From Leucoraja ocellata (lineage: Eukaryota), in the NCBI GenBank assembly GCA_036785375.1, contig JAWMAR010000131.1, positions 620,001 through 684,000 of the forward strand: a DNA stretch of 64,000 nucleotides. Direction: 5' to 3'. Below, piece after piece: positions 1,069 through 64,000 of this stretch. Position numbers and translations under genes: made by a program. Numbering within the stretch: position 1 is the stretch's first letter; the number at the start of each line of letters is the position of its first letter. The notes under the pieces were generated by a model. That model ran no database searches. It was not told the origin of the DNA and worked only from the letters and a program-made list of their open reading frames with translations.

Positions 1069-1278
1069 TGTAGGAAAAAACTGCAGATGCTAGTTTAAAT
1101 TGGTAGACACAAAAAGCTGGAGTAACTCAGTGGGACAGGCAGCATCTCTGGAGAGAAGGAATGAGTGACGTTTCGGGTAGAGTCTGAAGAAGGGTCTCGA
1201 CCTGAAATGTCACACATCCCTTCTCTCCAGAGATGTTGCCTGTCCCGCTGAGTTACTCCAGCATTTTGTGTCTACCTT
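1069..1278. mobile_element. Fold-back Penelope-like non-autonomous element with hammerhead motif
   Basis: Arms ~1103-1177 and ~1200-1277 are reverse complements. The centre reads gtCTGAAGAagggtctcgacctGAAAtgtc (core 1184-1211). Confidence 0.75.
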
Positions 1279-1685
1279 GAGACGATAAATGTCAAGTTAC
1301 CGATACAACTGACCAAAGATTAACATGCTATTTGAATCTGGTTCTTTTCCTTTTCCCATCTAACTAAAAAAAAAGTAGAGAATGCTTATATTCTAAGATT
1401 ACTTCGAATACAAGACCCTAGATTTCAATATATGCCCACGTTACACTTATTAAAAGACAAGGATTTTATGCAAATCTAATTCTCCAAAAATAAAACAAAG
1501 GAACACTTTAAGACATTTTGAATTAAATTGAGTAACAATCTAGGTTACCTTTTCAAAAGAGGAGAGTGTCCACAAAACAGTATTCTTGATATATCAGCAT
1601 TAAAATATTGTTTTCATTCATTTTTAATACGCTTACTCGCCTATCGACAGTTTAAACAAAAATAGAGCAAGATAAACAACTGGTT

Positions 1686-2047
1686 CATAAGTGATAGGAG
1701 CTGAATTAGGCCATTTGGCCAATCAAGTCTACTCTGCCATTCAATCATGGCTAATCTATCTCTCCCTCTCAACCCATTCTCCTGCCTTCTCCCCAAAACC
1801 CGACACCCGTACTAATCAAGAATCTATCAAGCTCTGCCTTAAAAATATCTATTGACGTGGCCTCCAGTCTTCTGTTGTAATTAATTCCACCGATTCATCA
1901 CCCTCCGACTAAGAAATTCCTCCTCATCTCCTTCCTAAGGGAACGCTCTTTTATTCTGAGGCTATGACATCTGGTCTTGGACACCCCCACTAGTAGAAAC
2001 ATCCCCTCCACATCCACTCTATCCAAGCCTTTCACTATTCGGTCATT
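1686..2047 (-). mobile_element. CR1-clade LINE 3' end
   Basis: Typical CR1 3' UTR (aggccatttggcc...ccattcaatcatggct). Minus-strand ORF fragment IVKGLDRVDVEGMFLLVGVSKTRCHSLRIKERSLRKEMRRNF matches the CR1 ORF2 C-terminus. Confidence 0.8.
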
Positions 2048-2295
2048 CACCACATTATCTGCACCCAACCTATAAATCACACTATGGCTCCAGATTCAAT
2101 GTGAAGGCACGGGTGGAAGTAGCTGACTGTAGATGATATATGCATGTGACCCTTAATATAGTTACCTCATCACTACTACCACTCCCCATATCACAAGTAT
2201 AATTACAACCTCCCTACCCACATATCGCTCTCTAGTTTCCGTGACAGACCACGTACAGCTAGTGCTCTCTGTAATGCCACAGTATGAGAATTGCG

Positions 2296-2478
2296 TGTAG
2301 GAAGGAACTGTAGATGCTGGCTCAAACTGAAGATAGACACAAAAGTTGGAGTAACTCAGCATTTCCGGTTAAGGCACAAAAGGGTCTGAAGAAGGGTCTC
2401 AACCCAAAACACCCATTCCTTTTCTCCAGAGATGCTGTCTGACCCGCTGAGTTACTCCAGCTTTTTGTATCTATCCTC
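2296..2478. mobile_element. Penelope-like fold-back element, degenerate hammerhead
   Basis: Same arms (ctggagtaactcagc / gctgagttactccag); gggtCTGAAGAagggtctcaacccaaaacaccc has GAAA mutated. Confidence 0.7.
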
Positions 2479-3574
2479 AATGAGAATAATATCAACTACC
2501 CAGGAGGTTAAAATAAATTACTTTCGTGTCATCTCCAGAGGGCAAATGGCACTAATTTAAGATCAATCTTTGTCAGGAAACCCTTATGTCTTTGTGAATT
2601 AGTAAACATTCAATACATAGATTTAAGCCAAAAGCAAACAACGTGTGGTACAATGCACCATTACAATATTCAAAAGAATGAAAATAATGCTTAGACCTTA
2701 ATGAATTTAACTCCCAGGTTTGATGGTCAAGCCATTTGCATGCAAAGATATGGAAGAGCAATTAAATATTCAAGGGGCCATTAATCATATTAACTCTGAC
2801 CAGCGTTTAGACCACAGGAGCATCTGGATACTTGACCATATAGGCCCATTAGGTCCTCAACCAAGCAGAACCCACATGCACTTCCCGCAGAGTTGTTAGA
2901 AAACAACCAACCAACCCTTCCTTCGGGCACCAAGCCGATCTTCTCTGACACTGCCTTTCCCATAAAACTCAAATTGGAATGCAAATTACATTTGCTTTTG
3001 TACGGCACATGGAGACGACTCTTTGTATGAATGTACGTAAAATTAAGACCAAGGTCAGATACCGACTAAATCTAGGGCAAACTTATTTTAACTTAAGTTA
3101 CCCAATTAACTGATAAATAACTTTGCTGGCATTTAAAACCTTTGCGGATAGCTGTCACAATCATGCCAGCTCCATTCCAAGGGATACAGCTCTTGCCAAA
3201 GTTATATTTAATCTTTTAGATATATGGGAGCATAAAGTTGTAAATGATAACATTGTATTTTTTCACCAAGAAAATGGGCTCACCTAATTCACATTGGATT
3301 GGTCACTCTTAAGAGAGTGGCAAAAGTGGAATTAGTTAGTGCTTCCTTCAAGCATCCCATTGACATTTACTATGGTTACTTTAACTTTCATTGGCACAAC
3401 TTTGGTCCTCATGTTGATAAACAGCAATAAAAGTTTCCAAAGCTGATAGATAGAGTTGGGTGATGAGAGACTCCAATACCTGCATTAGGGAGGCAATTAT
3501 CCGCACACAAGCAATCACAAATGCCTGTGAAGACATGGTTCCCTGAAATGGGGGGACTACGTATAAGCACAGCT

Positions 3575-3736
3575 GTAATTTCTACATGGTGTAACCAAAA
3601 TGTATACAAATACCCTTTAATAAAATCTGACAATGTGCACTTTAGCCACATGTGATTTTTTTCTATTACAAATCTCAAATTGGAGTACAGAGGCAAATAA
3701 ATAAAGAGTCTGTCCCAAACATTATGGAGGGCACTG
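3575..3736. mobile_element. Tc1/mariner element, right-end fragment
   Basis: Ends ...tgtcccaaacattatggagggcactg|TA, a CAGTG-type terminal inverted repeat followed by a TA target dinucleotide. No left TIR was found. Confidence 0.6.
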
Positions 3737-5606: not shown

Positions 5607-5722
5607 GAACTTTCTCATTTATTATACTGTTTACAGTGTACTATGTTTATATATTCTGTTGTGCTGCTGCAAGAATGTCATTGTTCTATCTGGGACATAC
5701 GACAATAAAACACATCTCTTGC
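5375..5722 (+). mobile_element. Rex/Babar-type LINE 3' fragment with internal microsatellite
   Basis: Translates HPGHTLISPLPLGRRYRSLKTVTSRFKNSFSPSAIGLLN (Rex-type ORF C-terminus). 3' UTR 'gctgctgcaagaatgtcattgttc...gacaataaaacac' matches the tail at 56580-56660. A (TG)/(TA)/(CA) tract lies at ~5538-5605. Confidence 0.75.
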
Positions 5723-5864: not shown

Positions 5865-5908
5865 GGTACACAAAAATGCTGGAGAAACTCAGCGGGTGCA
5901 GCAGCGCA
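5865..5908. mobile_element. 44-bp micro-copy of the Penelope-like element arm
   Basis: ggtacacaaaaatgctggagaaactcagcgggtgcagcagc, flanked by a perfect 11-bp direct repeat tcgtacttgta (5854-5864 and 5909-5919). Confidence 0.75.
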
Positions 5909-6222
5909 TCGTACTTGTACTTGGCTTCTGGAAACTATGTGAGGGCAGGTGGGATTACAATGAAAAAGACAGCAAAATTAGAAATAACACTGCTTTAGTC
6001 GGTGGCACCTTGGATGAAAATAAAATCAGACCCCTGGGACGGCGTTGAATGACCAGAATGGCCATTTTAAGCAACATTAACTACTTTTGGTTCCCCGGAA
6101 TTAAATCTCCATTCGATTCCTATTTAGAATTCTCAACATTCAGCCTTCGGAAACCATTTTAAATACCTTCATACAATATTGATTTAAAGTGTCTGAGGTA
6201 AAATTTAACAAATCAATCTTAC

Positions 6223-7953
6223 CTTCTTGAGCAATATTAGTATCTCTACTGTTACTGGGTCCACACGTGCTGTACAGTGAAGCGAGATCTTGTGGGTTGT
6301 AGGAATTCAAAATTTTCAATACATTCCAACGAGAATCAATTCCATTTGAATCCAAGGCTGATCCTGGCTTAGCCGATATCCCTGTGCTTCTTGCCTGAAG
6401 AGGGGACATCTCCTGAGATAATTTTATATTTCTTCCTTGAACACTCCTCCTTATTCCAAATGAAAGCTGATCATTTCTTAAAGGACTATTTATTTTCATT
6501 CTTTTAGCTGTAGGCTCATGCGAGTCCAAACCTCCCTGATTCTCAGATATATTAGTAAGACACATTTTGCTAACATTGGGAGCCCAATGACCATCATATC
6601 TAAACAAATGTCCCCTGGGTCCTTCAGATTCATAGTCCAATTTAGTACCAGACTTTTCAGACACATTTCTCTTACTGGTACCAGCTTCTGAAGAACCATT
6701 CCTTTCTGCTTTTTGCACCATCTCTGGCATCTGCCTTGTTTCAGAATGTATAGATCCATAGCTTTCAAGTTGCATGTTAGGACTCTGGGTCATCTTGAAG
6801 GCATTAAAGTCACTGGAAGATCTAGCTTCTGCTGCAGAGGGAAGGAGATTATTGCACAGGGACTGGTGTGAGGAAGATGATAATTTTGCCTTTCCAGGTA
6901 GCAAGTCAGAAGCATCGGTTGGAGCTGCTGGTAATGGCGACTTGGTCCGACGAGAAAAACTTTTGCTCATTTCTTTGGTGGCAAGCAAAGAAGAAACATC
7001 TTGACCTAATAGTGCAGGAGGGCATCCAGTGCGTCTGCTTTTAAGTGACCCACTATGAAAAGCATTTCGAAATCCATTTATCGAACTCGGTTCAGGAATA
7101 TATTTGTGTACCAACCTTTGGTGCATCACTAAGACCTCTGGGTACAAAGTTCTGTAGGTACAAAATGGGCACACATTGCTCAGTAAGGCACTCTTGGAAA
7201 ATGAGGTAGATACATTTCCCTGAGGACTACCAGCGCTGCACAGGCTTTGCCGATATATTGTGGTACAAAGATTCAAAGGCTTTTCCAATAAACTGAATTC
7301 ATATTTATCACAGTAGTCCTCCCTGTTACGTCTAGTACTAATATAACATTGGTCATTTATAGGAATGGGTTCCACCTTCATACTTCTAGCATTGTTCTGT
7401 TGTGTATAGTTTTCTGCAAGTTCCTCCATTGAGCTTTCCTCCAGAACATTGGAATCGTCAAGTTCGATAATAGCCTTTGCATCAGAGTTACATCTCTGTA
7501 ACTCAACTATCAACTTTTCATCCATTAATTTCTCAGCGTGAGACATTGGCGACATTGGCAACAGTGCACTGCAGAAGATTCGTCGACCATGATGGATCTT
7601 CAGGTCCGGGAATTCTCTACTCGTATTTGAAAACTCGGCATTTTGAAAAATTGGACTAGTAGACGAAATAATCCTTTTCTGAATCCCCCGAGGAATGTTC
7701 GCATCTAAATCTTTGGCACCGCCCAAAGAATCTGTAAAGAACCTCTTGGAGTCTTGAAGAGATTCCTGAACAGATTCATCATTTTCTTTTGGTGCTACTT
7801 CCAATTTTGGAGATATCAATGAATTCTTCAGCGGCTCATTCTTTTCTTCAGTCCTTTTCTGCTCACCCTTGTGATGCCGTTCCAAGTGATACTTAAGTGA
7901 GGTTTTCTGAGCTGCAGCATAGTCACAGAGGGGGCATCGATGGGGTTTTTCAC
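6223..7953 (-). CDS. ZNF217: ZNF217 coding exon 3 (finger 7, finger 8, CtBP-binding motifs)
   Basis: Acceptor gtttcAG|GT at 7954/7953 and donor GAAG|GTAAGA at 6223/6222; 1731 nt, phase 1-1. Encodes GEKPHRCPLCDYAAAQKTSLKYHLERHH, PLNLC, CPFCTYRTLYPEVLVMHQRLVH and RRTGCPPALLG, all ZNF217 hallmarks. Confidence 0.96.
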
Positions 7954-8009
7954 CTGAAACAATAAATATATAATTTACTCATTTTTCATATTTTACTAAT
8001 TTTAAACCA

Positions 8010-8230: not shown

Positions 8231-8324
8231 AAAAGGTACAGGATATTTAGGCTTGCAAGCATGTTCCATCAGTCAATGTGATTTGTAACCCCAACTCTAC
8301 ATATCCATTATTTTGAAATGATTT

Positions 8325-8574
8325 GGGGTGGCACGGTGGCGTAGTGGTAGAGTTGATGCCTTATAGCGCCAAGTACGTGTTATTTGTACGTTCTCCCCGT
8401 GACTGCATGGGTTTTCTCCGGTTTCCTCCCATATTCCAAAGATGTACAAGTTTGTACGTTAATTGGCTTCGGTAAAATTGTAAATTGTCCCTAGTGTGCA
8501 GGATAATGCAAGTGTGGGGGAAATCGCTGGTCGGTGCAGGGGCTGTTTCTGCACTGTATCTCTGAAGTAAAGTA
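8325..8574 (+). mobile_element. tRNA-derived V-SINE (HE1-like)
   Basis: tRNA-like head ggcacggtggcgtagtggtagag; V-domain tttgtacgttctccccgtgac...gggttttctccggtttcctcccatattccaaaga; CR1-like tail. Confidence 0.8.
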
Positions 8575-9560: not shown

Positions 9561-9660
9561 GGTTAAAACACCAGAATAAGAATATGGATTTTTTTGGAAA
9601 GAGGTTTATGAGTGACCATACCCAAGGCTTTCAATGGTCAACAAGAAATACTTGAGTTAT

Positions 9661-9945
9661 GGGGCAGCACGGTGGCGCAGCGATAGAGTCAAAGACCCGA
9701 GCTCGATCTCGACTGGTCTTGGACAGATGCTCGTCTGTATGGAGTTTGTACGTTCGCCCCGTGACCTGCGTGGGTTTTCTCCGAGAACTTTTGGTTTCCT
9801 CTCACATCATACTCCAAAGACATAGAGGTTTGTAGGTTAATTGGCTTGGTATAAATGTAAATTGTCCCTATTGTATGCAGGATAGTGTTAATCTGTGAGG
9901 ATTGCTGGTCGGTGCGGAATCAGTGGGCCTATTTCAGCACTCTCT
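9661..9945 (+). mobile_element. V-SINE
   Basis: ggggcagcacggtggcgcagcgatagag head and V-domain gagtttgtacgttcgccccgtgacctgcgtgggttttctcc. Confidence 0.8.
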
Positions 9946-10335
9946 TTTATTATAATAAAATATAATATATGAACAATTACTTTAAAAAGAATACAAATGA
10001 AAGACAGGATGGAGGTCCTGCACAAGACTAGAGAACATTAGTTCAAAATTAAGCAGCTTTGAGAAAGGTTTATTATTCAATTGTTAATAGGAAAGCAGGA
10101 GATGTGAAACAGGATTACAGAAAGATGGGTTAACCGATAGTATGAGAATAAAATGGATCACCATCTACATTAAGAATGACCGCACTGCTTTAAAATAATG
10201 TAAACTAAAACCAATTTTGCTTATTAGGCCTTTAGCTCAACATAACAGTAAACCCAGTGCTTGTGGTTACAGATACTCAACATGTTTCAATATTCCTCTT
10301 TATGCTGCAGTGAACAAATAGAAAACAGGAAGGAA

Positions 10336-10425
10336 AGGGTCTCGACCCAAAATGTCACCTTTTCCTTTTCTCCAGAGATGCCGTCTGAGCCGCTGAGTTG
10401 CTCCAGCTTTTTGTGACTATCTTTG
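10336..10425 (+). mobile_element. Penelope-like element, single arm
   Basis: aagggtctcgacccaaaatgtcacc...gctgagttgctccagctttttgtg. Confidence 0.65.
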
Positions 10426-10598: not shown

Positions 10599-10763
<165 letters not shown>

Positions 10764-11650: not shown

Positions 11651-12511
11651 CTAGGCTAAGTGGGACCCGTTGGGTCCCAGTCACCACGGGGGAAGTGTGT
11701 ATGTGGGCGGGAGGGGTGGAAGAGGAGGAAGGATGTGGGGGGAGAGAGGAAGTGGGACTTGGTGGTTTGGGGGAGGGGTGTGTGTGGGGTGGAAGTGGTG
11801 TGTGGTGGAGATGGATTGTGGAGGAGAGGGGCGCGGCGGGGGAAAGGGGGAAGGGTGAGGTGGGGGGGGGGGAATGGTGAGGTGGGGGGGGGGGGGAAAG
11901 GGTGAAGTGGGGGGGGGGGGTAGGGGAAGAGCTCGGAGGAAAGACGGGGGAAGAGCCATGGGGGAGAGTGCGGTATCACGGGGGAGGGCAGGAGCCGGGG
12001 AGGAGGACCAGAGGGGAAGGGGTTCGGGATGTGATGAGGCCTCACAGCGGTCGCTGGTCGTTCTCCTCCACCAGGATGAGAGTCTCTACTTTCCGTTGGC
12101 GACATCAGTGCCATCTCTGACTCCGCGCTGGCCGGGCTGGGGTCGGGTCGTTTCCAGTCCCTCCGAAAATTGTGTCCAGTTGGAGACCTCCGCCGGCCAT
12201 CCAGAGCATCCCGCAACTGCAGTAAAGATGCGATGGCACAGGAAGCGGAGTAACAGCAGAAGCGACCAATCCGCCTGACACTGAATGGCAGGAGAGCCAA
12301 TCGATCTGCGCACGTGCAGTTTTTAAGATTTTTAAACCTCGATAACTCTTACCAGCTTCCACCGATCGAAATGAAACTTGGTGCAATCGCAGCATAGGAG
12401 AACGATGAGTAAGCTGGAGAAAAATAGTAGCGCTATCGCGTACCGTTTTGCGCAAATAGAATGACCGCCAAACCGGAAGATAACAAGATCAGAATTTTAG
12501 TTATGTATAGA
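11651..12511 (-). mobile_element. Non-autonomous Helitron (861 bp)
   Basis: On the minus strand it starts A|TCTATACATAACTAAAA and ends GGGACCC-AAC-GGGTCCC-acttagc-CTAG|T. This gives a 5' TC, a 3' CTAG, a subterminal GC hairpin, insertion between A and T, and no TSD. Confidence 0.85.
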
Positions 12512-18839: not shown

Positions 18840-19085
18840 GCACAAGGAACTACAGATGCCCCATTTATAAAATGAAAAGACAAAGTGCTGGAGTAATTCA
18901 ACAAGTCTGGCAGTTACAATGCCTTGTAACTGTATATTTTGACTGATGGCAGACCAATTTATCTCTGGGATAAATAGAGTTGTATCTCTGGAAAAATGGA
19001 CAGGTTATGTTTCAGGTTGGGGGCCCTTTCTGAAACATCACCTATGCTGCCTGTCCTGTTGAGTTACTCCAACAATCTTTTTGTC
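18840..19085. mobile_element. Diverged Penelope-like fold-back element
   Basis: aaggaactacagatgc...aaagtgctggagtaattca with inverted arm ...tgagttactccaacaatctttttgtc. Confidence 0.55.
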
Positions 19086-19160
19086 CTCAAAAGGAACAGA
19101 GTGTTTGTCACAGTGACAAATAGCATGAAACAGATGTCCAATGGACTGATAGCCACCTAC

Positions 19161-45720: not shown

Positions 45721-46721
45721 GTAATAGATAACATGCACATCAATCTAATATGGTGCTCAAGGATATAAGCCAGGTGTGATACAAGTTCAGTTATGAATAC
45801 ATGCGAATAAATGGTAAGGGAGCACCTCTACTGATTTCAAATTCCCCCTAGTTTTGAGAAAGGTTACAAAGATGCAAGAGATAGTTCAAAAATCTCAGTG
45901 TGCAGATGCTAATAAAAAAATCATTAAAATGGAAGATAGGCAGTGAAGTACCACTTAGAAAAAATCAGAAAGAGCTGCAGGCAAAATGAAAATGGATGCT
46001 AGAGTGAAGGAAAACTAAAAGTACAATTTGGCTCTGTTATTCCAGATACGTGCAACATTTTAAAAATAAATAATTGTTACACCAACAAAAAACAAATGGT
46101 GAAATACATCACCAGTGGTGGTCATGAGAAGACATGGGGTTTGTGCTTTAAATGATCGCTTCAAATGTTCTAAACTTTGAACTGTATCTTCATTTAATAT
46201 CCTACCAAGTTAAACTTAGTTCCCATACACCCCAATGGATATGCAGCCACCCATTATTTCAATTTGCACATTAAATTCAAGATACAAACCCTGCCTTCCT
46301 TTTCATCAACTTGCCCAATTTTCTCAGCTCTCACAGGACCTACACAAAGGGCAATGGGAAATTGTCAATAAGGCTAATCGCCGTCTGGCTGCTTGGCATA
46401 GCACAGGCAAAACCCCTATGTTGCAGGGGATGGGAGGAGGCCACATTTTCGAAAAACGTCCATATCGTGATGAACTGTAATGTGAGACCAGATCATCTGC
46501 GCATGCCGGAAGATGTCGGAGTTGAATGCAAAAATAAATTGTGTTGATTTGTTTACTTTCTCCCAACCACAAATTCTGAAAGAATTAATTATGTTCCACA
46601 CCACACATTTTTGGGCAGTGATTTCTGAATTCTGCAAGAGCAAATTTCCATAGCCCAGAAGAATCTAAAACTCGATGGTCACCTGTATTTGATGGTTAGA
46701 ATTGTCAGACAACTATCCAAT

Positions 46722-46910
46722 CAAAGTATCAAAGCATCCTTTATTGTCATTCAGACCTTTCGATCTGAACGAAATTCCGTTGCCTTGCAGTCATACATAT
46801 AATAAAAATAACAAAAACACCCAATAAACACAAATTTAACATCCACCACAGTGAGTTCACCAGGCACCTCCTCATTGTGATGGAAGGCAAAAAAAAAGTC
46901 TTAAAGTCTT
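46722..46910 (-). mobile_element. LINE 3' UTR fragment (Rex-type tail)
   Basis: (atcaaag)-like tail followed by tttattgtcatt...gaacgaaattccgttgccttgcag, the same tail architecture as the other Rex copies. Confidence 0.5.
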
Positions 46911-49900: not shown

Positions 49901-52854
49901 TGTAAGCACATCTACACACTACAGTGGAATTCATAAAGGGTTAGGTATTTTTCTGAGTAGTTTAGTTAAATAATGCCTATTCTCGTTCTGACTGCATAAT
50001 AACAGTCCAATTAGATGAATGTCATTTATAAAAAGGTTCACCGAAAGAATTACTGATGCAAACTTCAACTTTTGAATATGTAATAGAAAAATGTTTTTCA
50101 AATCAGTTCAAACCCAGAGGAAATTAAAACTGGGTGGATAAATAAGAATGCTGAACTACATTCCCTATTGCTATTCTTAAAACTGTAATTAAAAATATTT
50201 GTAAATAGCTTTAAGTCTGAGACTGTTGATGTGGATGCCAATTTAAGCATGTTTAATGACACCTTGGCTGAGATCATTTAATTCAGAAAAGACACAACAT
50301 TTAGTTGAAAGGCAGTGGAATACTCTGAAAACCCCAAATGGGATTGGAATTCTATTTCCTGGTTTTATATTGCTCAGCTATGTAATAATTTTAGAAATGC
50401 ATCTATTGGAAACAGTGTCTACAACTACTTCTGCTTTTTGGCATACAATTTTGAATGTCACAATTCTTAAAATGTTAATGGTAAATTGGGGGAAAAAAAC
50501 GTATCTTTTGCCTCGCAGTAATTCACTCATATTTGCATTTACATCGATAATCCACAAGACGCATTTTACTACACATTTAGAAAAGAGGAACACTTTTCGA
50601 ATTGTTGGATTTTGGCTGTAAAGACTATCTTAATATGCTATTTCAAGTCACAACATTGAGCATTTATGATCCACTTCTACAGTAGATATTTCAAAATGAT
50701 ATTTTAAGCCATTTGCTTAATGGGCCCTTTCTTGTCCAACCTGTATGCAATTTGCATAACAGTCATTCCATCAAATAAAGTACATGGGTGGGGTTACTTC
50801 ATGTACAAGATATAAAAGTCGTATTGTATTATTTACACATTTACAGGCTAAAGTCACATAAGTTACCCAGAAATAAATATGAGCCATCAAACCTTCCAAG
50901 TTTGACAGCAAAGACCACTGGACATTTATCAGCTAGTTTCAATCTGTTGGCAGCAAAAACACCGAATGGGACAATTCAAAATGAAAAATAAGATTGACTG
51001 AAACTGTGCAAGGTGAACTAGTAGTACAAAGCAATACAAAAACATGTATAGCAATCAACCTCCTAAGTTCCCACAAAAAAAAGATATGCTGCTACATAAC
51101 ATGACATACCAAGGCTGTTGAAAAGACAATGATAGGCTCTAATTTAGGGAACTATTTAAACCCAAAACTTTACAGTACAGGATGTAAGTGTGATGCAAAC
51201 ATCAATGCTGTCTAAAACCAGCAAAGACACATCTACATTTTCAATAAGAGTATGGTCACCAAGGTCATAATCCACAAGCCCAACAGGCAGGCTGACATGC
51301 CTAATGTGAAGGACAGATGTGGCTTTTAATTTAACGGCACAACACAGGAGGCTGCTTGTATATCAAAAACAGCCCTGAAAGGAAGGGTGGGAAAGAGCCA
51401 CTAGACTAGTAACCGCTTCAACTTACAAAGCAACCCTCAAAAAATGCCTACTGGACTAAATATTTCAATTTCTTTGTTGTTTTATAAATAAAAATGTGAC
51501 ATCTTGGAATTTTGAAGAGCAAGGATGCCCAAAAAGTATCTATTTTCAATTACTGGGTTCTGCATTACTTTCCCTTTTTATATAAAGAAAGTGAACTATC
51601 TATCCCTTTACAATGAAGGGTTGTACTTTTAACAGGCAATTCCTTACATTCTACACTCTATCAAGCCTCACCTATGATTTTTCTTTAAAGGCCTTGTGTA
51701 TCAAATAATTTGTTAGAAGACATTGCAAACAACACCACTAGTTTATTAACAAAATCTAGATTAAATCTGTGCAGAGCTATAGCCTTTGTTTACTGGACTG
51801 AAGGGGTATGTTGCTTAATGACTCAGACTATTTTAGAAACCTTGACTTTTGGATTGTAAAATACTATTTCTCAGCAGGAAGTCCAAGAAGCTGGGATTTT
51901 TTTACATATTTACACTGAACATAAAGGAAACTGAAATAAAAACAAAGCAGATGAATATTTGCTATATTTGTTTTCAATAGCTTGCATGGAGATTAGAAGA
52001 TTCTATACTGCATCCAAACAAAATGAGGACTTGTCACATCATGCACAGCTTTGAACAAGGCAAAACAAAATCAAGTGGCAACTGAATTTTATTCTGAACT
52101 GCCAAAAGCAGCTGACATTTCAACTCTCTACTATCATATGAGGTCCAGGTTAGCCTTTCTTAAACAGGGCTTCTGCAACAATAGTGTTGCTGCCATCATT
52201 ATTCTGCCCATGAAGATATTCATTACATCAGGATAAACAAATGTAGCACTTCCTTGATCAATGAATCATACTGGAAAAAGTATGTAACTATCAGGGATTA
52301 GGGGAGGGTGAGATGCAACAACCACAGACAGTGAAGAAAATGTGGGCGCGAACCAAAAATGTATAAAAACTAACAAAATCCTATTGATTTTGTATATGGC
52401 AGCACTGCTTTAAAATTAGACTGAGAAAATAAGGGGTCAAGAACTTCCTTCATGCATGCTGAATGGGGATATTCAGAAATTAATGTTATTTTAAAAAGGA
52501 AATGGAAAAAAAAAACTTCACCATGTTAGGGACAAAAGGTTTACCAATTTTATGTTACATATGACTAAACCCACAAGATAAAGACTGATCTTTTCACTTC
52601 CTGGTGCTTTTTCTGGCTATGTAATCCTGATACTTTAAATAAACTATGCAGCTGGTTGCATCCAAATACATTTATTTCAATCTGATATGTTCCAATATTA
52701 GTTTGTGGATTCCTTTGATTAGTTTCCAATTAGATTTTAAATTGACATGGTTCTCTTAAAGATCTCAATGCCACAAAGGATGCAATTTAAAAGCTGAAGT
52801 TCATGCATTGCAAAACTTGTGTGCAAGCATTAAGCAGCCAAGCTTATCTTAAGA

Positions 52855-53066
52855 CAAGGGTTCCCAATCTTTTTCATCCTGTTTACACCTGGTAACTCTA
52901 AGAGCACATTACAATGTTATTTCACTTATTTATGAACAACTAATGATGAACAGGTATACCAGAACCAAACACAGTCAATCAATGAGAAAAAAATATATAC
53001 AAATCCACAATCAACAAATTTACCCCCTGGGTAGGCGAAATCTTTACCCCAGGTTAGTAACCTTTG
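52855..53066. mobile_element. hAT-type MITE (212 bp)
   Basis: Imperfect TIRs caagggttcccaa / ttagtaacctttg, with an 8-bp TSD tcttaaga (52847-52854) / tcataaga (53067-53074). Confidence 0.65.
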
Positions 53067-55191
53067 TCATAAGAGAATCAAAAAATAAGTGAATTTATTC
53101 ATTGGAATAGCCTTTCATTTGTTTTCTAACTTTAAAAAATAATGCAATTCAAGTTTTAACTCGGAACAAATATACAATAAATATTATTTTAATTTGCCAA
53201 ATTTGAAGTTTTATTAAATAGCTCTGATAGGCTTTTCAATTATTCTTTTATCTATACTGGATGTGTGTAGTCAGCAAACAAATACAGTACTGAAATTTAA
53301 AACCACTGTTCCTAAAACAAACACTTCAATTCAACACATAGGGCAAGCCAATTTCTAAAAGTACACAAAAATCAACCTTGAGACTTTTTTTCTAAAAAAA
53401 CATTCAGACCCTGAAAGAGACCCATCTAGTGCCCAGTGACATTTGTGAAAAAGACTGAAAGTTCCAATCAAGGTTATGGAGACTAAGGCAAGAAAAACAA
53501 AATTACAACTTCTATGGAATTTTCCATTTCCTCAGTTCAGGTGTCCTTTACCCCAGATATGTGAACAACTAATTGCTCAGCAACCCTGATTCTGATCAAT
53601 AAGTAATTAATTATTTCTCTAATCTACAATGCAGTCCCTTGGTTTTGAATGTAAATATCTCTGGAAGAAGGGGGGGAAAAAATATCAATTCTCTACAATT
53701 TCTGCTACTTTGTACCATTAGTTATTGGAAAGCAAACATGGCCATAACAATTCACTGTACAAAAGTGTTGTTTTATTTAACATATCATAAAAAGTTAGTT
53801 CTTTTTTTTTTAAACTGCTGAAAATAAAACGCTCCCCAAAGTTATTCCCAGAGGCCCAAGATTCAAAGGCAGTTTGTTCTTTTAAAACGGAACCAAGAAT
53901 GCAACAAAAGCAATATGGAGATGCTTTTTTTCTGCAATACGCTATGCAACTATTTTACAATAGTTACATTAATTAGTTCTACTCTGGATAAAAGTACTAC
54001 AAATACTTCTATACATTTTAGTCATTACGTTAAAAGATTACAGTACAATTCAAAAGCGACTTTCAGCACACATGTCTAAACATGGCGTGAAGGCATTCAA
54101 GCTATTGTCATGTCATTGTGTTTGCTACCTTTTCTCCTAACACAACCCCCAACCATACCGTCATGGTATTAGTCAGCAAGTCACTGCCTGCTCCCAGCAG
54201 ATAAAGTCTGAAAAATCTTCCATTTTCAACAGATTTCTTAGATACTATTCAACAGATACTTTTTTTTTTTTTTTTTTTAAAGCGTCACTTAAAAGTTGCT
54301 TTAAAGATCTCCACCAGAGGTAGGCGACCAACAGTCAACATAATCCTGGACCATGTGATCCGATACTTGCTGATTAGAATAAAACACGAGTGTTAAGACC
54401 TACACTTCTCACATCAATTGTTTCATAAAATAAGATGAGGCGTTATTCTGATCGACTTTAGAAAAAAAACGAAAATTAAACAAAAAAAAAAACAATTACC
54501 CAATGCATAAAACAGATCAGCTAACAGTAATGGTCACCATATGATTATGAAAACAATTAATAATGGGACAACCGTTGAGGTTCTTCCCCCTCCCCCTCCC
54601 CCCCCTCCATAAAAAAAATATTAAAAGTTGCCCAATTCCATCTGTTCTATTGATCGCTGTACAATCTGTATCGTTCAGAAAACATCGCCACTGAGGGCAC
54701 AAACGGAATCCAAACGAAACAAAAAGAAACTGACAGCGATCAATGAACTTTCATAATGACTAACAAGGCTCCCTCAGACCTTCAAGGAGCAGTTCATTAA
54801 TAAAACTCTCCTCGTTTTAAAACTTGCATTAACGCAGCTTGGTCGAGCAATACGACTGGGAGCCCGTAATTCCTATTATCAAAAGTTATATGTATATAAA
54901 ATAGAGAAAGAAAGGAAAAAAATTCCTAGATTTTTCTTTTTGCGTAAGCAAGTTGAGAGGCTCCCTTGACTTTTGGCTGTTTGGAGTTCTTGTTGATGTA
55001 TTTCTATACAGTGGCTGAATGAAGTCATTTTATTATAAGAGGATCTTTTGAATTAAAGCTACTTACAAGAGGAATAACCCCCACTTTGTAGCATGTAAAG
55101 GCAAATTAAAATACACTATTTATATATATATATTCGACAAAGGAACAAAACAAAAAAAATAACATGCACACCGCTCCCTGCATTGACTGAC

Positions 55192-55400
55192 CTGCTTCTC
55201 CTGTGATGTTTGGACTCATTCCCTGAAGCCCTTTATTCCAAGCTATCTCATTATTTATTTACTCCGCTTGCCTCCCCTCCTACCTTGCGCTGCCAGTGCT
55301 GCAGTTACTCGCTGCTCCCTGCGCCGTGTAATATTCTGCCTTTACCACTCCAGCGCTGCTCGCACCGCCTCCCTCACTCACTCACTCAACGCCTGGGTTC
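55192..55400 (-). other. ZNF217: Probable non-coding first exon of ZNF217 (5' boundary uncertain)
   Basis: Strong donor GCAG|GTCAGT at 55192/55191, directly downstream (minus strand) of the only non-repeat CpG-rich patch in the window. The coding exon at 21016 has an acceptor, so an upstream exon is required. Confidence 0.65.
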
Positions 55401-55500
55401 ACGTGTCTCCCCCCCTGCCGCGCGTTCACGCCGGCCCGGGAGCGCGCTCCCTCACCCATCCAGCGCGCCGCCGACAACCCATCCTGCGTGCACGCGCGTC
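55265..55500 (-). promoter_or_regulatory. CpG-island-like promoter of ZNF217
   Basis: Dense CpG/GC in an otherwise AT-rich, CpG-poor locus. Contains a GC box (ccgcctccc ~55365), an E-box CACGTG (55400-55405), and palindromes gggagcgcgctccc (55438-55451) and gcgtgcacgc (55486-55495). Confidence 0.65.
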
Positions 55501-56236
55501 CTTCCATCTATCTGTATCTATAAATGTATGTGTATGTGTACATACATATGTGTCTCGCAGTCCTTTACTGTGCACTGTCCCAGTTTTATGAAGAGTGGGG
55601 TGAGCAAGGAAAAAATAATAACTTGATGATGCAGGAAATAGCTGTATCAGAGATTAAATCTTTTTTTTTTAATTTTCATTTTGCCTCCCTCTTCACTGGG
55701 ATTTGTTTTGAGACTTTGGACTCTACAATCACGTGAACAACGAAATGACAAAGCCCCGTGTCACTGATCTACTGTGCATTATTTTTGCCATGGATTATTT
55801 TTGAATCTTGACTTTTATGTTCAAACTTTTAAATACAATTTTATTGGCTCTTCTACACAGATTTGGGATACTTCTATATTCACAAATCTGTGGGGTTTTT
55901 AGGGATGTGATTTTTTTTTACATTTGGTTTCTCAAAAAAAAACCCTGCACTGCTATGCAAATTTACTATGAAAATCTATCAGCCATTCCAGTACAGGTGA
56001 TTTCTAGCAGAAATTTGGAAGTTATTTCCAAAGGAACTGAAAGACATACTAAAATGGGTTTGTTGATGCATGGGAAACCTAACGCAGACTGGTGATATTG
56101 TCAGAATATCTTCAGTCATATCTTCAAAAGTGTGACCCCGCCCCCCCCCCCCAGTTGCCAATTGCTTTTCATTTTATTTCTCCATTCCAATCAAACTGAC
56201 CCCTCTGGCTTAAAGAGTAAAGAGTCAAGGATGTTT

Positions 56237-56574
56237 GGTGACAAAAATGCTGGAGAAATTCAGCGGGTGAGGCAGCATCTATGGAGCGAAGGAAATAGGC
56301 AAAGTTTTGGGTCGAAACCCTTCCTCAGACTGATGTGAGGGTGGGGGGGAGGGAGTTGAAGTGCTGAGCCACCGGGAGATCAGGTTGATTATTGCGAACC
56401 GAGCAGAGGAAATAGGCAACGTTTCGGGTCGAAACCCTTCTTCAGTCTGAAGAAGGGCTTTGACCCGAAACATTGCCTATTTCCTTCGCTCCATAGATAC
56501 TGCCTCAACTGCTGAGTTTCTCCAGCATTTTTTGTCAACCTCCGATTTTCCAGCATCTGCAGTTCCATCTTAAT
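56237..56574. mobile_element. Composite Penelope-like element: three hammerhead motifs and a GIY-YIG relic
   Basis: Arm with minus-strand motif (~56300-56332); coding relic LCSVRNNQPDLPVAQHFNS (56408-56352, minus); back-to-back motifs cccttcttcagtctgaagaaggg (~56435-56457); arm and tail. Confidence 0.85.
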
Positions 56575-56579: not shown

Positions 56580-57741
56580 AGTCAAGAATTTTTTATTGTC
56601 ATATGTCCCAAAATGAAACAATGGAATTCTTACTTGCTGCAGCACAACAGATATGTAAACATAGTACTCTAATAAACAACACAAATTTCAGGGTATATAT
56701 ATTTTCCCCGATGGCAGGTGTGAAATGAGAGTGTGATGTGCTGTGGGTCTTTGATGATGCTTTTTGCAGGAGAAACTCCTGTAGATCCCTTATGGGTTGT
56801 GGGGAGGTCATGATGGACGTGTTCAGCACTTTTTGCAATCTTCTTCATTCCTGGGTGTTCAAGTTGCTGAACCAGGTTGTGATGCAATCAGTTTTAATAT
56901 GCTCTCCACTGTACACTTGTTGACATTCAAGTGAGTATTTGTTGACATACCGAATCTCCGCAATCTTCTAAAGAAGTAGAGGTGTTGATGGGTTTCGAAT
57001 TACATCAATGTGCTGGGGTCAGGAAAGATCTTCAGAGATATGCATACCCAGGAAGTTGAGGTTTTGACTCTCTCCACCACAATCTCGTCAAGGAAGACAG
57101 GTTTGTGGATCCTCGACCTTCTTCTCCCAATGTCAACAATCAGTTCCTTGGTTTTACTGACGTTAAGAGCAAGGTCGTTGTTCTGGCACCATTTGGTCTT
57201 TTGATTGATCTCCCTCCTATACTCTGACTCATCATCATCCATAATTCATCCAACAATGGTGATGTCGTTGGTGAATTTGAAGATGAGGTTGGAATTGTGG
57301 CTGGCTACAGTCATGACTATAGAGTGAGCAGAGCAGGGGGTTGAGCATGCAGCCTTGAGGTGATCCTGTGCTGATGATTATCGAGGAAGAAATGTTGCTG
57401 CCAATTCATACCAATTCTGGTCTGTTGATGATCGAGGATCCAGTTGCAGAGGTATGCGCAGAGACCCAGTTCCGTGAGCTTGATAACCAGTTTGAAGGGG
57501 ATGATAGTATTGAACACTTGCTGTAGTCTATGCAGTCCATGCAGCCTATGTCGTTTTCTTGTCAAGTGGTCCAGTACAGAAGGGAGAGCCAGTGAGATTG
57601 CATCCTTTATTGACGTGTTGTGCTGGTAGGCAAATTGCAGTGGGTCCAGGGTTTTGGTGAGGTAGGAGTTGATATGAGTCATAACCAACCTCTCAAAGCA
57701 CTTAATCACCCTGGACGTTAGGGCCACCGGTCGGTAGTCGC
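56580..57741 (-). mobile_element. 5'-truncated Rex/Babar LINE with frameshifted reverse transcriptase
   Basis: DYRPVALTSRVIKCFERLV..LDPLQFAY..DAISLAL..LDHL and DDESEYRREIN..WCQNNDLALNVSKTKELIVD are Rex1/Babar RT motifs; multiple frameshifts; the 3' UTR ends near 56580. Confidence 0.88.
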
Positions 57742-58330
57742 TGGAATCTGAGGAATAGTATTTAATCTTCTATTTTGGCACTTTTGGAATAAACATACTG
57801 AATTCAGCAATTCAACAGCTTGGATTATCAACAATCCTAGGTTTACATTTCCAGCATCATTGTTTCAAAACAATGAACCGCTAAAACACAGGCAGCATCT
57901 GTGGAGGGAAATGAACAGTAGCCATGTTGCATCAAGATCCTTCATCTGGACTAAGTATGGAGTGGGAAGTAGTGATTATAAATAGGTGGAGATGGATAGA
58001 TGGATAGACGGATTGATTCGAAAGGAAATTGAAGACTGAATCTAAATAAGGAAGGTTGATGGCAGGTGGGAACAACAGAGGGAGGGGAGAGATGAGCAGT
58101 TTTGCGGGGGGAAAGGGAACCAGTGGGAGGAGTGTTGGGTGATGGGCAGATAGAGTAGGTGCATAGGTGAGGGGGGGGGAGGGGGGGGGGGGGAGAAACA
58201 GTGTAATGGAAGGCTTCTTTCAAGGAGCTTATTAATTAATTGGTATTTTCATGGAATAAATAAAACACGACCCAATTTACCCATGCGAGTATTTATGGTC
58301 TTGCATTTAGCCTCATCAGAATCATCTTGT

Positions 58331-58483
58331 GGGTACACAAAAATGCTGGAGAAACTCAGCGGGTGCAGCAGCATCTATGGAGCGAAGGAAATAGGCGACG
58401 TTTCGGGCCGAAACCCTTCTTCAGTCCTTCAGGTCTTTTTGTGTACCTTCGATCTTCCAGTATCTGCAGTTCCTTCTTGAACA
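58331..58483. mobile_element. Penelope-like element with intact hammerhead core, 14-bp TSD
   Basis: cagaatcatcttgt (58317-58330) / caggatcatcttgt (58484-58497), plus tail ...ctgcagttccttcttgaaca. Confidence 0.85.
58394..58427 (-). ncRNA. Minimal type I hammerhead ribozyme motif (best-preserved core)
   Basis: CUGAAGA-A-GGGU[UUCG]GCCC-GAAA-C-GUC|GCC: complete catalytic core, stem II capped by a UUCG tetraloop, palindromic ACGU stem III and a GUC cleavage triplet. Stem I pairing is poor in this copy, and activity is not demonstrated. Confidence 0.65.
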
Positions 58484-60144
58484 CAGGATCATCTTGTATT
58501 CCTTTCTCTCTTACATATTTGTTTAGCATTCCTTTGACTGTGCTAATGTTACTGCTTAGAGTTTACAATTGTGTTCGGAGCATTTATACAAAGGCTGAGG
58601 GTACTGTGCTTGCACTGCAACTCAATTACTTTATTGACTCAGCAACTGAGTCATACTGGCAAGAGCTCTTGCAAGCTTTGTACCTTGTCTATAATAAATT
58701 AAACAATCACAGATTGAGAGGCGATAAAGATAGTGGTGTTAAATGAATGAAATTAACCATCATTTCAGCACTTGCACCAAGAAGGAGAAATTTTCATAAC
58801 AATTCTACAACTATTGCTGGTAGGATGCACATGCGTTATTGCACCTAGAAATGATGATCCTAAAGCTGATTTTCACCTGCGAGCGTTCCACTGGGTTACA
58901 TATTAAAAAGTAACTTAAAATAGTATTAGGGGTTGTATAGCAGCAATAGCCAAGTGGTTAACATTCACTTGGAAAACAAAATGGATTTTGACCTCTCTTA
59001 TCTGACATAAACTCCATTGAGCAGTTTAAGCTTAAAAGAAGGAATGGTATGTTTGTAGAAATTGGCAGCCAATTCTGTGATAGAGATAGAATAAGGTACA
59101 TCTTGAGAGTCCAAATGTTTTTCAACATTTGCTGTCCACCATTTGCCAATGTAGTTGCCAATGAAAATATGTGTATACTTTGTACGTATATTAAGTACAG
59201 AATATCAAAGAATATTCATGCTTTTGCATTGTATCAGATTCTCTGAGGATACATAGAATGGCCCTGCAGTCATCTGAACACTACATATATGTTGTGTTTG
59301 TCAAACTATCATCCAGACTTTATCATTCAAAATAACCATCTAATTCTGCCTTCCACTGCGTATTCTAATTTAAATTGTGTTATTAGAGCATGTATCTTCC
59401 ATTATAACCATGAACTTTCCTAGAATCACTGTTATTATGAAAACAAATTAAGAATCTGGAGAGTAAACTGCAGTATACTGGAAAGTATGTTTGGTGTCTT
59501 TTTCAATTCCCTGTGCAAATCAGATATACATTTCTGAGCTTTAATTTTCTGTATTAGCAATCGCTGTCTTTAAAATATATGGGGGAGTCAAGATATAAAA
59601 TATTGATTAGAATTTTCTTGGGCAAATAAAATTCATTCAGCAGTTTCCGCTGTATAGTCTTTCCGCTGACTGGTTTTCATGGAACAAAAGCTTTTCATTG
59701 TACCTCTGTACACGTGGCAATAAACTAAACTAAACTAAAATAACCAGAGAGGAAAATTTTCCCTGAGATTATATTTACAAATGACCTTGACATGGCCATT
59801 TTTACCCTTCACTTTGGTAAAGTAATATTTTCAATTGCAGAGCAATGTTACATAGTCTAATTTCTATCCATTCTTTCTTCTCTGCACCTCATGTAGCAAA
59901 ATTGTAGCAAGTTCTTTATAAATTTGCTGCATTCCGCCAACTCAGACTTACACTCATCCAACGTGTATATGGAACATTCGTGCTGATTTGCACTTTTCAA
60001 CGGATTAGGTGAAGTCTGGTATTACTGTACTTTTAGGCTAACCATACTGCCAATGTAACTGGGAATAGCCTAAAATAGTTTAGGCAAAACATATAATTTT
60101 ATCATCAACCACATCAGCTTCCCCTGGTAAGGCTTCACTGCAAT

Positions 60145-60312
60145 ATTTATGGAGAGAACGGACCGCTGATGTTTCGGGTTGGGACCTTTCTTCATTCTGA
60201 CCCGAAAAACCATCTGTCCATTCCCTCCACAAATGCTGCCTGACCCGCTGAGTTTCATCAGCACTTTTATTTTTGCTCAAGATTCCAGCATCTGCAGTTT
60301 CTTGTATCTCCA
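60145..60312. mobile_element. Diverged Penelope-like fold-back element
   Basis: gatgtttcgggttgggacctttcttca...gacccgaaaaacc...gctgcctgacccgctgagtttc...ccagcatctgcagtttcttg. Confidence 0.65.
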
Positions 60313-61179: not shown

Positions 61180-61460
61180 GACGGGACCCTTCTTCAGACT
61201 GTTCGTCATAGAATCATAAAGCTGTACAGCACGGAAGCAGGCCCTTCGACCCACCTTGTTGATTCTGACCAAGTTGGCATAGTAGGCTAGTCCCATTTGC
61301 CTTCATTTGGTCCACAGGCCTCCGAACCCTACCTACCATTGATCTATAAATCCTATCCACCTGAAGGAGGGTCCCAATCTGAAATGTCATCTGTCCATTC
61401 CACTTCACAGATGCTGCCTGACCCATTGATTTCATCCAGAACTTTTTTTATTTGCTTTGT
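61180..61460. mobile_element. Penelope-like element split by a CR1 3' fragment (~61207-61360)
   Basis: gggacccttcttcagact | catagaatcata...ggcccttcgaccc (CR1 tail, minus) | ctgaaggagggtcccaatctgaaatgtc...gatgctgcctgaccc. Confidence 0.55.
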
Positions 61461-61867: not shown

Positions 61868-62017
61868 GTGTAGGACGGAACTGCAGATGCTGGTTTAAAC
61901 CGAAGATAGACACAAAATGCTGGAGTAAGTCAGCGGGACAGGCAGCATCTCTAGAGGGAAGGAATGGGTGACGTTTCATAGAAACATAGAAAATAAGTTT
62001 GAGACCCTTCTTCAGAC
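61868..62017 (-). mobile_element. Penelope-like element with 16-bp TSD and a 20-nt CR1-tail micro-insert
   Basis: tgtctccatgatggct (61852-61867) / tgtctccatgacggct (62018-62033); insert atagaaacatagaaaataag at 61978-61997. Confidence 0.8.
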
Positions 62018-62374
62018 TGTCTCCATGACGGCTATCAGGTCATGCTTGTTTATTTCTCGTTGTGCTTTTGACTTATCTATCTTGTTACAAAACTGTGCTG
62101 AATTTGGCCAAGAGCCTTCAATGTTCTGTTACTATTTTTCTTTACTCTGACTCTATTTGCTTCTCCAATCTTAAATTGTACACTTTGACTCTTCCCGATA
62201 CATATGGGTCATTGCAATCCCTGACACGGCCATACACTATTTCCTTCTCTTTCTCTTTGGTTTCTGAAATAACCCTCACCTGAATCCTTTTTAAACTATT
62301 TCCAGCTGAATAAATCTCAAGAGGATATAGATAGCCTTTTAGATTAGCATACATTTCAGGATGTAGGAGGAGCA

Positions 62375-63355
62375 TCAAAAGAGGGCAAAAAGGCAGTCGG
62401 CAATAAAAGATGTGGAGGAGCAGTGAGACATGGGTGCATAATTGGATAAATCATTGGAAGTGGAAGGACCTGTTGCAAATTTTTTTAATAAAGCATAAAA
62501 GATCATATGTTTCATAAACAGAAGCACAGCGAACAGAAGCAGGGAGGTTATACTGAATCTTTCTGAACACTTATTTAGCACAGTTGTCGAGTATGGTGTT
62601 CGATTTTGATCACCATACTTTAGGATGAAAACAGGGTTCCTGAAAACAATGCAAAATAAATTTACGAGAATTATTCCCGAAATGAAGGCTTTCAATTCCA
62701 AGGTTCAGGTTGTTCACCTCTGGGCAAATGTGCACCACATCTTTGCACTAAACATGGTATTCTTTATCCTTTATCTCTGCACTATGGCCAGATTGATTGT
62801 ATTAATGTATAGTATTTTTTTGTACTGGATAGCATGCAAACAAAAGCTTTCCACTCTACATTGGTACACTTGACAATAATAAACTAAACTAAACTGAGAA
62901 GATTGGGAGGACATTTGTTAGAGGTGTACAAGACTGAGAGGCCTGAGAAGGGGTAAACAAAGAGTAGCAGTTTCCATTAATAGATGGATTATTGCTCAGG
63001 AAAGCACATTCAAGGTGAGGGGTTAAAGTGCATCGGGGATGTGAGGGAATACTTGTAAGAGCGATTATGATCTGGAATTAAATTGCTCATAAAGATAAAG
63101 GGAGCAGAGACAATCAGGCCTTCCAGAAGGAAAGGCATTTGCAAATCTAAGGGAAAAGAGGAGGGGAATGTGACGGAGTAGATTGTTCTTCAATGAGCCA
63201 TTATGGTGTTCAGGCGAAACATGGAAGTTCAGGGACTGGAGGGTTATGGATTATGTACAGGCAGATGAGATCAGTTCAACTAGCCATCACGTTTGGCACA
63301 AACATTGTGGGCCAAAGGGCCACAGTCCTGTTATGTACTATTCTATGTTATATGT
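62375..63355 (+). mobile_element. Old CR1 LINE 3' part interrupted by a Rex/L2-type tail (~62700-62895)
   Basis: 'gagtatggtgttcgattttgatcaccata' (EY.V.FWSP) and 'gggccaaagggccacagtcctgttatgtactattctatg' tail. Confidence 0.65.
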
Positions 63356-63374
63356 TCTAATATATATAGTCACA

Positions 63375-63539
63375 NNNNNNNNNNNNNNNNNNNNNNNNNN
63401 NNNNNNNNNNNNNNNNNNNNNNNNNNNNNNNNNNNNNNNNNNNNNNNNNNNNNNNNNNNNNNNNNNNNNNNNNNNNNNNNNNNNNNNNNNNNNNNNNNNN
63501 NNNNNNNNNNNNNNNNNNNNNNNNNNNNNNNNNNNNNNN
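63375..63539. other. Assembly gap (165 N)
   Basis: Run of n characters. Confidence 1.
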
Positions 63540-63927
63540 TGTGAATGTGCTGTTAAATTAATTGCATAAAAGTTACATTTTGGGAAACCTACTCCTCATC
63601 ACTGCCATCCTTATTTGGCCGTATGATAAAACAAACATGATAAGCTGACAGAATTAGCTTTGGTCCTGTTGCAATACAATGGCTTTATTGCACTGAAGAG
63701 CTGAGCTACTTGGACTTTGAACAGAGCAGGCTCACTGTCCAGTGTTCAGTTAGCCAATTGCAGCATGATGTCAGAGTCGTTCCGTTTGCCCTTGAGGATT
63801 CCTGCTAGAAGAATACATGCGTGAATAACAAAACGCAAAAGCAGATTAGGCAGCGACGTTTCCCATAATAAAATTGCTTATCGACATTTGCTAGAAGGAC
63901 TCGCATAAAATCAAAGATTGCTTGTGG

Positions 63928-64000
63928 ACACGAGAAACTGCAGCTGCTGATTTACAAAAATAAAAACACAAAGTGCTGGAGTAACTCAGAGGGGCAGGCA
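63928..64000 (-). mobile_element. Penelope-like element tail and arm, cut by the window edge
   Basis: gaaactgcagctgctg...acacaaagtgctggagtaactcagaggggcaggca. Confidence 0.6.

Follow-up and report, generated by a model that had tools for sequence, protein, structure and literature searches.

The arm family in the ZNF217 region of Leucoraja ocellata

The stretch analyzed here, hereafter the window, covers 64,000 bp of the Leucoraja ocellata genome (GenBank assembly GCA_036785375.1, contig JAWMAR010000131.1, positions 620,001 to 684,000 of the forward strand). It contains coding exons of ZNF217 and many copies of a short dispersed repeat, which we call the arm, with the motif of a minimal hammerhead ribozyme. 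In our interpretation, to which we assign a probability of about 0.7, the arm corresponds to the 3′ portion of the pseudo-long terminal repeat (pseudo-LTR) of an endonuclease-bearing Penelope-like retrotransposon, and its loci are dead-on-arrival, target-primed insertions made by a route that uses both target strands. That the loci are remnants of Penelope pseudo-LTRs is very probable by itself; for two-strand priming as the route to the fold-backs, we consider the odds to be about even.

An arm profile was built from eight copies in the window and searched against the whole window, with the reversed window and five shuffled versions as controls. The search detected 38 arms at E ≤ 1, 37 of them at E ≤ 0.01, whereas the reversed window gave no match and the five shuffles gave one (E 0.39). 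The arms merge into 23 loci, or 24 when those at 21530 and 21699 are kept apart, and cover 3388 bp (5.3% of the window, with locus boundaries drawn by eye), which corresponds to about one copy per 2.7 kb. All 16 coordinates given in a first-pass annotation of this DNA, made without database searches, lie on members of the family. The fold-back family described there is found at the 11 of 24 loci that are two-armed, in each case with the ribozyme ends facing each other in a head-to-head arrangement; the other 13 loci are single-armed, and no fixed unit recurs. Its label "satellite" does not apply, as the window contains no tandem array of the arm unit. A satellite or retrozyme was also considered and ruled out by the lack of a head-to-tail array and by arms that are not bounded by the cleavage site.

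Positions in the arm are numbered from the C of CUGA at 34940 (+1), and cleavage is predicted after +28. Thirty-five arms, leaving out the fragments at 19022 and 21699, were sorted into subfamilies A, B1, and B2 and an older mixed group C, a finer division of the two arm types recognized earlier. Divergence from the consensus is 0 to 6% in B2, 5 to 10% in B1, 6 to 14% in A, and 13 to 37% in C. One A copy and one B2 copy have an open reading frame spanning the arm, which is closed in the two B1 copies, and an 8-bp helix common to the 3′ part of the arm lacks net covariation support. No exact match to the motif was found in bacterial and archaeal genomes, and none in plasmids or phages. We found no description of this arm family in the literature searched; Repbase and Dfam, which lay outside the search, may already name it.

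The hammerhead motif in the arms

The core pattern matched the window 14 times with up to three mismatches, compared with a mean of 0.01 in shuffled sequence. Three matches are exact, all on the minus strand (21592–21619, 56418–56445, and 58397–58424), and the consensuses contain the palindrome ACGU in helix III, with its CG retained by 9 of 28 arms. The family thus shows recognizably the proposed minimal type I hammerhead and its palindromic helix III. The best-preserved core, at 58397–58424, has CUGAAGA, stem II, GAAA, the ACGU palindrome, and GUC, but the 5′ strand of its stem I was lost at the fold-back junction. The core of the single short-end arm of group C at 21530–21621 (minus strand) passes a minimal-hammerhead descriptor with a 2-bp stem I, but its helix III palindrome is mutated. 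Core, ACGU palindrome, and stem I occur together in no copy of the window.

The published minimal-hammerhead descriptor gave no match with a stem I of at least 3 bp, because stem I is only 2 bp long here, and it accepted four copies when 2 bp were allowed. Rfam reported no hammerhead at the gathering score, and nothing at the motif; one HH9 match (E 3.3) lies on the opposite strand and away from the motif. Rfam microRNA matches were rejected as reflecting hairpins and simple repeats. In the old arm at 57889–57950 (minus strand, detected by profile match), four of five possible stem I pairs are kept, as judged by eye. This arm hints that stem I was longer (4–5 bp) in an earlier lineage and shrank in the younger subfamilies.

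The first-pass annotation took the preserved stem II with its varied loops as a sign of selection on structure. This was not borne out among the copies: none of the four stem II pairs is altered on both sides, and the covariation score of 0.118 lies below the 0.136 of shuffled alignments, 451 of 500 of which score as high. Of the four loops cited there, CUCA and CCCA are each one CpG transition away from CUCG and CCCG. The C11.1-G12 dinucleotide, with the catalytic G12, survives unaltered in only 9 of 26 arms; CpG mutation is a frequent cause of its loss. Non-CpG core positions are changed slightly less often than positions elsewhere, both in young arms (3 of 101 versus 65 of 1295, p 0.48) and in old arms (8 of 67 versus 167 of 804, p 0.11), a trend that is slight and of low power.

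Between the subfamily consensuses, constraint on the core did appear. These differ at 1 of 24 non-loop ribozyme positions versus 24 of 101 downstream positions (p 0.02), and at 36 of 101 downstream positions when group C is included (p 0.001), with the caveats that each consensus draws on few arms and that a fixed rule was used to restore CpG sites. The scarcity of differences in the ribozyme points to constraint in the source elements; in the genomic copies the ribozyme decays, presumably as a passenger.

In folding calculations, the hairpin of four long fold-back transcripts outweighs the ribozyme-compatible fold by 8 to 29 kcal/mol, and in four of the six short stretches examined stem II is displaced by an alternative fold. 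The ribozyme fold of dimers lies 18 to 34 kcal/mol above the dimer minimum in six copies, in a model that does not include tertiary contacts. That the genomic copies are working ribozymes under selection on structure would agree with the slightly less changed core and with the four copies that pass at a 2-bp stem I. It is nevertheless very unlikely: the core differences are not significant, C11.1-G12 and the helix III CG are lost in most arms, stem II does not covary, no copy unites all parts, and the dimer fold is strongly disfavored.

Insertion signature of the arm loci

Flanking direct repeats with a score of at least 11 were found at 9 of 22 scored loci, compared with 0.1% of 3000 random pairs from the window. 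Together with the locus at 1070, which the scan missed and which was read by eye, ten loci have clear target-site duplications of 11 to 18 bp, and three further duplications are weak. Five of the ten are fold-backs. In subfamily A, the fold-back at 1070–1276 has a long tailed arm on the minus strand and a short arm on the plus strand between 16-bp duplications (1054–1069 and 1277–1292). In B1, those at 23535–23687 (14-bp duplication) and 36827–37001 (15 bp) both have a short minus arm and a long plus arm. The young B2 fold-back at 36000–36181 (13 bp) has its junction at the native palindrome of the stem II region, centered at 36112, and another young B2 fold-back at 58332–58483 (15 bp) has a short minus arm and a deleted long plus arm.

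The remaining five clear duplications flank single arms, which carry either end. Three are short: 5865–5908 (B2, minus strand, 5′ truncated, 11 bp), 28038–28141 (B2, minus strand, with 11 nt of native upstream sequence, 14 bp), and 37903–37992 (B1, plus strand, beginning at CUGA, 13 bp). Two are long: 34939–35065 (B1, plus strand, beginning at the ribozyme edge, 11 bp), which served as the numbering reference, and 61870–62017 (A, minus strand, with an insertion in stem II, 18 bp). Weak duplications were read at 2297–2474 (A; a long minus arm, a filler of about 25 bp, and a short plus arm; 8 bp) and 60140–60310 (group C; a truncated minus arm and a long plus arm; 11 bp).

The remaining loci are as follows. 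Profile matches together with the 3′-end class define a single short-end arm of subfamily A at 10335–10421 (plus strand), a single long-end arm of the old group C at 16878–16977 (plus strand), a group C fold-back at 27514–27712 (short minus arm, long plus arm), and a single short-end arm of group C at 61361–61452 (plus strand). Profile matches identified a decayed group C fold-back with an internal insertion and a deletion at 18841–19093, a decayed arm fragment at 21699–21765 (minus strand), and a long-end arm of group C cut by the window edge at 63929–64000 (minus strand). The arm at 36396–36470 (A, minus strand) has native pyrimidine-rich upstream sequence and an internal deletion, and the group C fold-back at 39507–39722 (long minus arm, short plus arm) has its junction at the CUGA edge.

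The variable duplications of 11 to 18 bp indicate target-primed retrotransposition, in agreement with the first-pass annotation, and not a DNA transposon of the miniature inverted-repeat transposable element (MITE) type. Inverted arms of 70 to 100 bp are what a MITE with terminal inverted repeats would show; with duplications of variable length, asymmetric ends, single arms at 13 of 24 loci, and a center that is not fixed, this explanation is extremely improbable, and we regard it as ruled out by the duplication length.

The 3′ ends of the arms are bimodal, about 35 nt apart, lying near +92 (short) and at +126 to +130 (long), and both fixed ends finish in AC-rich sequence. Among 35 arms, 16 have the short end, 14 the long end, and five end internally. 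A CCAGCA box occurs twice per arm (at about +76 and about +103, for example in 34940–35065) in all subfamily consensuses, each time about 15 to 25 nt ahead of one of the two fixed ends; the boxes are a candidate signal for the two reverse-transcription starts. In all ten scoreable fold-backs, a short arm is paired with a long arm (p about 0.001 at even odds; 60140 was left out as unscoreable), and the same holds for the five with clear duplications (p 0.03).

At the 5′ side, starts cluster between −4 and +2, where about 13 of 35 arms begin (two old ones are uncertain), and four arms begin further upstream. None of the 35 starts at the cleavage site (+29), the nearest being at +25 and +26, and therefore uncleaved RNA appears to have been copied. 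The inner junctions differ at every fold-back locus, so fold-backs arise during insertion and do not move as units. Native palindromes lie at three junctions (36112, 39630, and 56446), and the remaining ones are, as read by eye, mostly overlaps of 1 to 4 nt or filler. In ten of ten pairs, both arms of a fold-back belong to the same subfamily group.

A proposed two-strand route to the fold-backs

A two-strand route can be formulated from these ends. The element protein would nick both target strands, 11 to 18 bp apart, and each strand would prime reverse transcription at its own internal position on the RNA, +92 for one and about +128 for the other. Both cDNAs would be copied from uncleaved RNA and would terminate just ahead of CUGA, either at the RNA 5′ end or at a strong stop. 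Short homologies or native palindromes would then serve to join them, and a single arm would result when just one cDNA survives. The end pattern is observed directly, and it is from this that we infer the strand-specific use of the two starts and the 5′ end of the RNA. For the hammerhead to act in the source elements, a single RNA would have to carry two pseudo-LTRs in direct orientation, and a protein would probably have to assist.

Biochemical work on a lizard element provides a precedent for these steps. According to the sections of that report used here (PMC11167929), both target strands are nicked and extended, two internal reverse-transcription starts spaced by the length of the tail were mapped in vitro, and uncleaved RNA is the main template. 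Direct and inverted pseudo-LTR copies with a tail are described as a typical Penelope structure in PMC3846280, and a head-to-head, tailed architecture is likewise described in PMC8557442.

A different route from the same Penelope origin would be self-priming at a palindrome by one cDNA or RNA that then copies itself, with the endonuclease resolving the intermediate and thereby creating the short end. It is the published view (proposed in parts of PMC3846280 and PMC8557442) and competes with the two-strand route over mechanism only, not over identity. The three junctions on native palindromes and the agreement in subfamily group between both arms of all ten pairs are as expected from it. Most other junctions are not palindromic, however, and both ends were mapped as reverse transcriptase starts in vitro (PMC11167929, as far as considered here). 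In addition, the short-only single arms at 5865, 28038, and 37903 carry clean duplications, which indicates that priming can take place at the short end alone. We therefore consider self-priming possible but rather unlikely.

More tentatively, and with reservations, the copies in the window may be read through the two-strand route as a mass record of Penelope insertion, in which a single protein dimer, with one uncleaved RNA as the template for both strands, always primes one strand at the short start and the other at the tailed start, and synthesis runs off about three bases before the core. When priming falls on the 5′ pseudo-LTR, SINE-sized fold-backs (SINE, short interspersed element) would be shed. 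As part of this run-off reading, the 5′ end of the RNA would lie at TCAGT, about three bases before the hammerhead core, a sequence that we take to be initiator-like. Some fold-backs might have been remobilized as a true Penelope-dependent SINE.

Locus 56237–56573 and a putative link to an endonuclease

The locus at 56237–56573 is an internally deleted Penelope-like copy, in which an inverted tailed arm (56447–56573, plus strand) stands beside two direct copies (56407–56445 and 56237–56328, both minus strand) and an endonuclease-like fragment. Read on the minus strand, it comprises the start of an arm, a jump at a short homology, 57 bp, a pyrimidine-rich leader, and a second full arm. The two direct copies are the sole such pair in the window, and both have a defective hammerhead. 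The 57-bp insert (56349–56405, minus strand) codes for CSVRNNQPDLPVAQHFNSL, and this 19-codon peptide resembles, by eye, the second half of the Neptune-type GIY-YIG endonuclease (Fig. S2 of PMC8557442, in the rows considered). An endonuclease-type motif matched twice in the six frames of the window, both times at 56.1 to 56.4 kb, compared with 0.13 matches per shuffled window. The insert at 56329–56405 has no second occurrence in the window.

Directly beside this insertion lies an older, frameshifted endonuclease-like remnant (56071–56196, from about 56060, plus strand), recognized by eye as a separate insertion; the 56237 element may have inserted near an older copy. The protein comparison of the two endonuclease-like fragments was narrowly the best outside the query (score 37 versus 35 for the next), whereas their DNA comparison was not significant, with 316 of 1982 random windows scoring as high.

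Direct and inverted pseudo-LTRs, a one-ended tail, and duplications of variable length, all structural features of Penelope elements, are thus found here, and they bear out the Penelope link made in the first-pass annotation. That annotation also suggested a dedicated non-autonomous family. Since 56237–56573 ties the arm to endonuclease-like sequence between direct copies, such a family is not needed.

In that alternative, a short SINE-like or retrozyme-like RNA would be transcribed from solo arms and mobilized in trans by a Penelope protein. The very high density of the family agrees with it, and a short transcript could account for the clustering of 5′ ends. Pseudo-LTRs have also been reported to act in trans (Arkhipova 2013, PMC3846280) and retrozymes to derive from pseudo-LTRs (preprint 10.64898/2026.07.22.740005), in the parts of these sources considered. 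Retrozymes, however, require tandem units, which are lacking here; the fold-back junctions are locus-specific, the transcripts of the four long fold-backs bury the core by the 8 to 29 kcal/mol given above, and at locus 56237 arm and coding sequence are joined. By our reasoning, the same short arms would also arise if a full mRNA were primed internally, on its 5′ pseudo-LTR. We consider a dedicated short RNA unlikely.

Several observations weigh against the Penelope pseudo-LTR and two-strand interpretation. No full-length element, Penelope reverse transcriptase, or frame combining reverse transcriptase and endonuclease is present in the window, and just one of the 24 loci includes coding sequence, a scarcity that is also compatible with a short non-autonomous RNA. 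Searches with the 19-codon fragment in Pfam, among homologues by word matching, in the atlas, and among solved structures yielded neither a family nor a homologue, and the endonuclease motif was picked from the Neptune rows after the fragment had been seen. Because database searches gave no homologue, the clade placement rests on the by-eye comparison. The biochemistry of both strands comes from a Poseidon-clade element and not from Neptune. The arm at 18841 was short in the end scoring and long in the profile search, and without this locus the pairing is 9 of 9. Partner arms rank 1 to 12 in mutual similarity and are not consistently each other's closest match, a comparison that did not separate models with one RNA from models with two, and each subfamily consensus rests on 6 to 13 arms. 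Apart from these points, an exhaustive homologue search with the endonuclease-like fragment returned only three repetitive proteins, which were judged spurious.

Comparison with known systems

By the likeness seen by eye in the endonuclease-like fragment, the source element probably belongs to the Neptune clade of endonuclease-bearing Penelope-like elements. As described in the portions of PMC8557442 and PMC3846280 considered here, these elements share with the arm loci a pseudo-LTR with a hammerhead, an inverted truncated copy placed head-to-head, a tail of 30 to 40 nt at one end, palindromic junctions, and short duplications. In contrast, nearly all copies in the window are 45 to 250 bp long and non-coding, with no full frame seen, and the duplications are 11 to 18 bp rather than the 8 to 10 bp of the rotifer Penelope-like examples reported there.

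PAc, the Poseidon element of Anolis carolinensis (Frangieh et al. 2024, PMC11167929, in the sections used), has two fixed AC-rich ends downstream of the hammerhead, an uncleaved RNA template, and a ribozyme fold that is disfavored without help, as in the arms. The family described here probably belongs to another clade; its short end lies about 64 nt past the cut site, compared with about 85 to 92 nt in PAc, and the start codon at stem II is absent from most copies.

Minimal Penelope hammerheads (Cervera and de la Pena 2014, PMC4209133) have CUGANGA, one extra base, a G-C pair opening stem II, GAAA, a palindromic helix III, and NUH in common with the arm. The 2-bp stem I resembles the D. virilis, Culex, and Oikopleura rows of that alignment, whereas the published descriptor requires 3 to 7 bp, and the covered part of the alignment includes no cartilaginous fish. 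Non-LTR retrozymes (Cervera and de la Pena 2020, PMC7229834; Li et al. 2026) are likewise non-coding, with a type I hammerhead and kinship to pseudo-LTRs, but in the parts of these reports considered they are head-to-tail tandem units bounded by cleavage sites, whereas the copies here are dispersed, single or head-to-head. Li et al. 2026 (10.64898/2026.07.22.740005) report, in the part considered, retrozymes and Penelope-like elements across vertebrates and retrozymes in one cartilaginous fish.

The link between Penelope and the hammerhead and the inverted, tailed ends were already known from published work. The family is therefore ordinary in kind and adds mainly a taxon and a scale. What merits counting across the genome is the strict short–long pairing of ends together with the clustering of 5′ starts, which offer a modest mechanistic lead to the origin of head-to-head repeats with a one-ended tail in Penelope-like elements. 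A genome this dense in copies is a test bed for that question: with one every few kilobases, end pairing, junctions, and 5′ ends can be counted in thousands. The results also suggest that surveys relying on hammerhead descriptors overlook families whose stem I has only 2 bp; if the window is typical, the genome would hold 10^5 to 10^6 copies of a hammerhead family missed by Rfam and by the published descriptor.

Gene setting and other features of the window

Coding exons of ZNF217 lie on the minus strand near 19156–20955, 10617–10745, 6218–7972, and 850–948. The protein is 84% identical to those of the rays Mobula and Narcine, the closest named proteins, and 71 to 78% identical to those of sharks, values that mark the host as a batoid elasmobranch. 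Six loci of the arm family lie in ZNF217 introns, none of them with a complete hammerhead core on the strand of the gene; intronic fold-backs within ZNF217 could form long double-stranded RNA. The core-passing copy at 21592–21619 (minus strand) is located about 640 bp upstream of the first ZNF217 coding exon, on the strand of the gene, and is possibly inside a 5′ intron. In a ZNF217 intron at 11686–12500, a low-complexity, G-rich tract gives way to a CpG-rich stretch (observed/expected 0.97).

No copy of the arm family was found in the 16.5 kb at 39723–56236, apart from one match at E 0.41, and self-matches are absent from this stretch beyond 40170. It is possibly a constrained regulatory region.

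A second dispersed repeat family, with tRNA-like head motifs, occurs at 8324–8571, 9660–9927, 21921–22236, 28441, 34576–34891, and 39883–40170; we presume that it resembles the elasmobranch HE1 SINE. A reverse transcriptase fragment like that of long interspersed elements lies at 57320–57769 (minus strand; Pfam RVT_1, E 6e-5). Unclassified dispersed repeats were seen at 5628–5710 and 56580–56678, at 8187, 17687, 31972, 59683, and 62839, and at 18037 and 27841. An assembly gap spans approximately 63380 to 63550, and the window contains 165 N in total.

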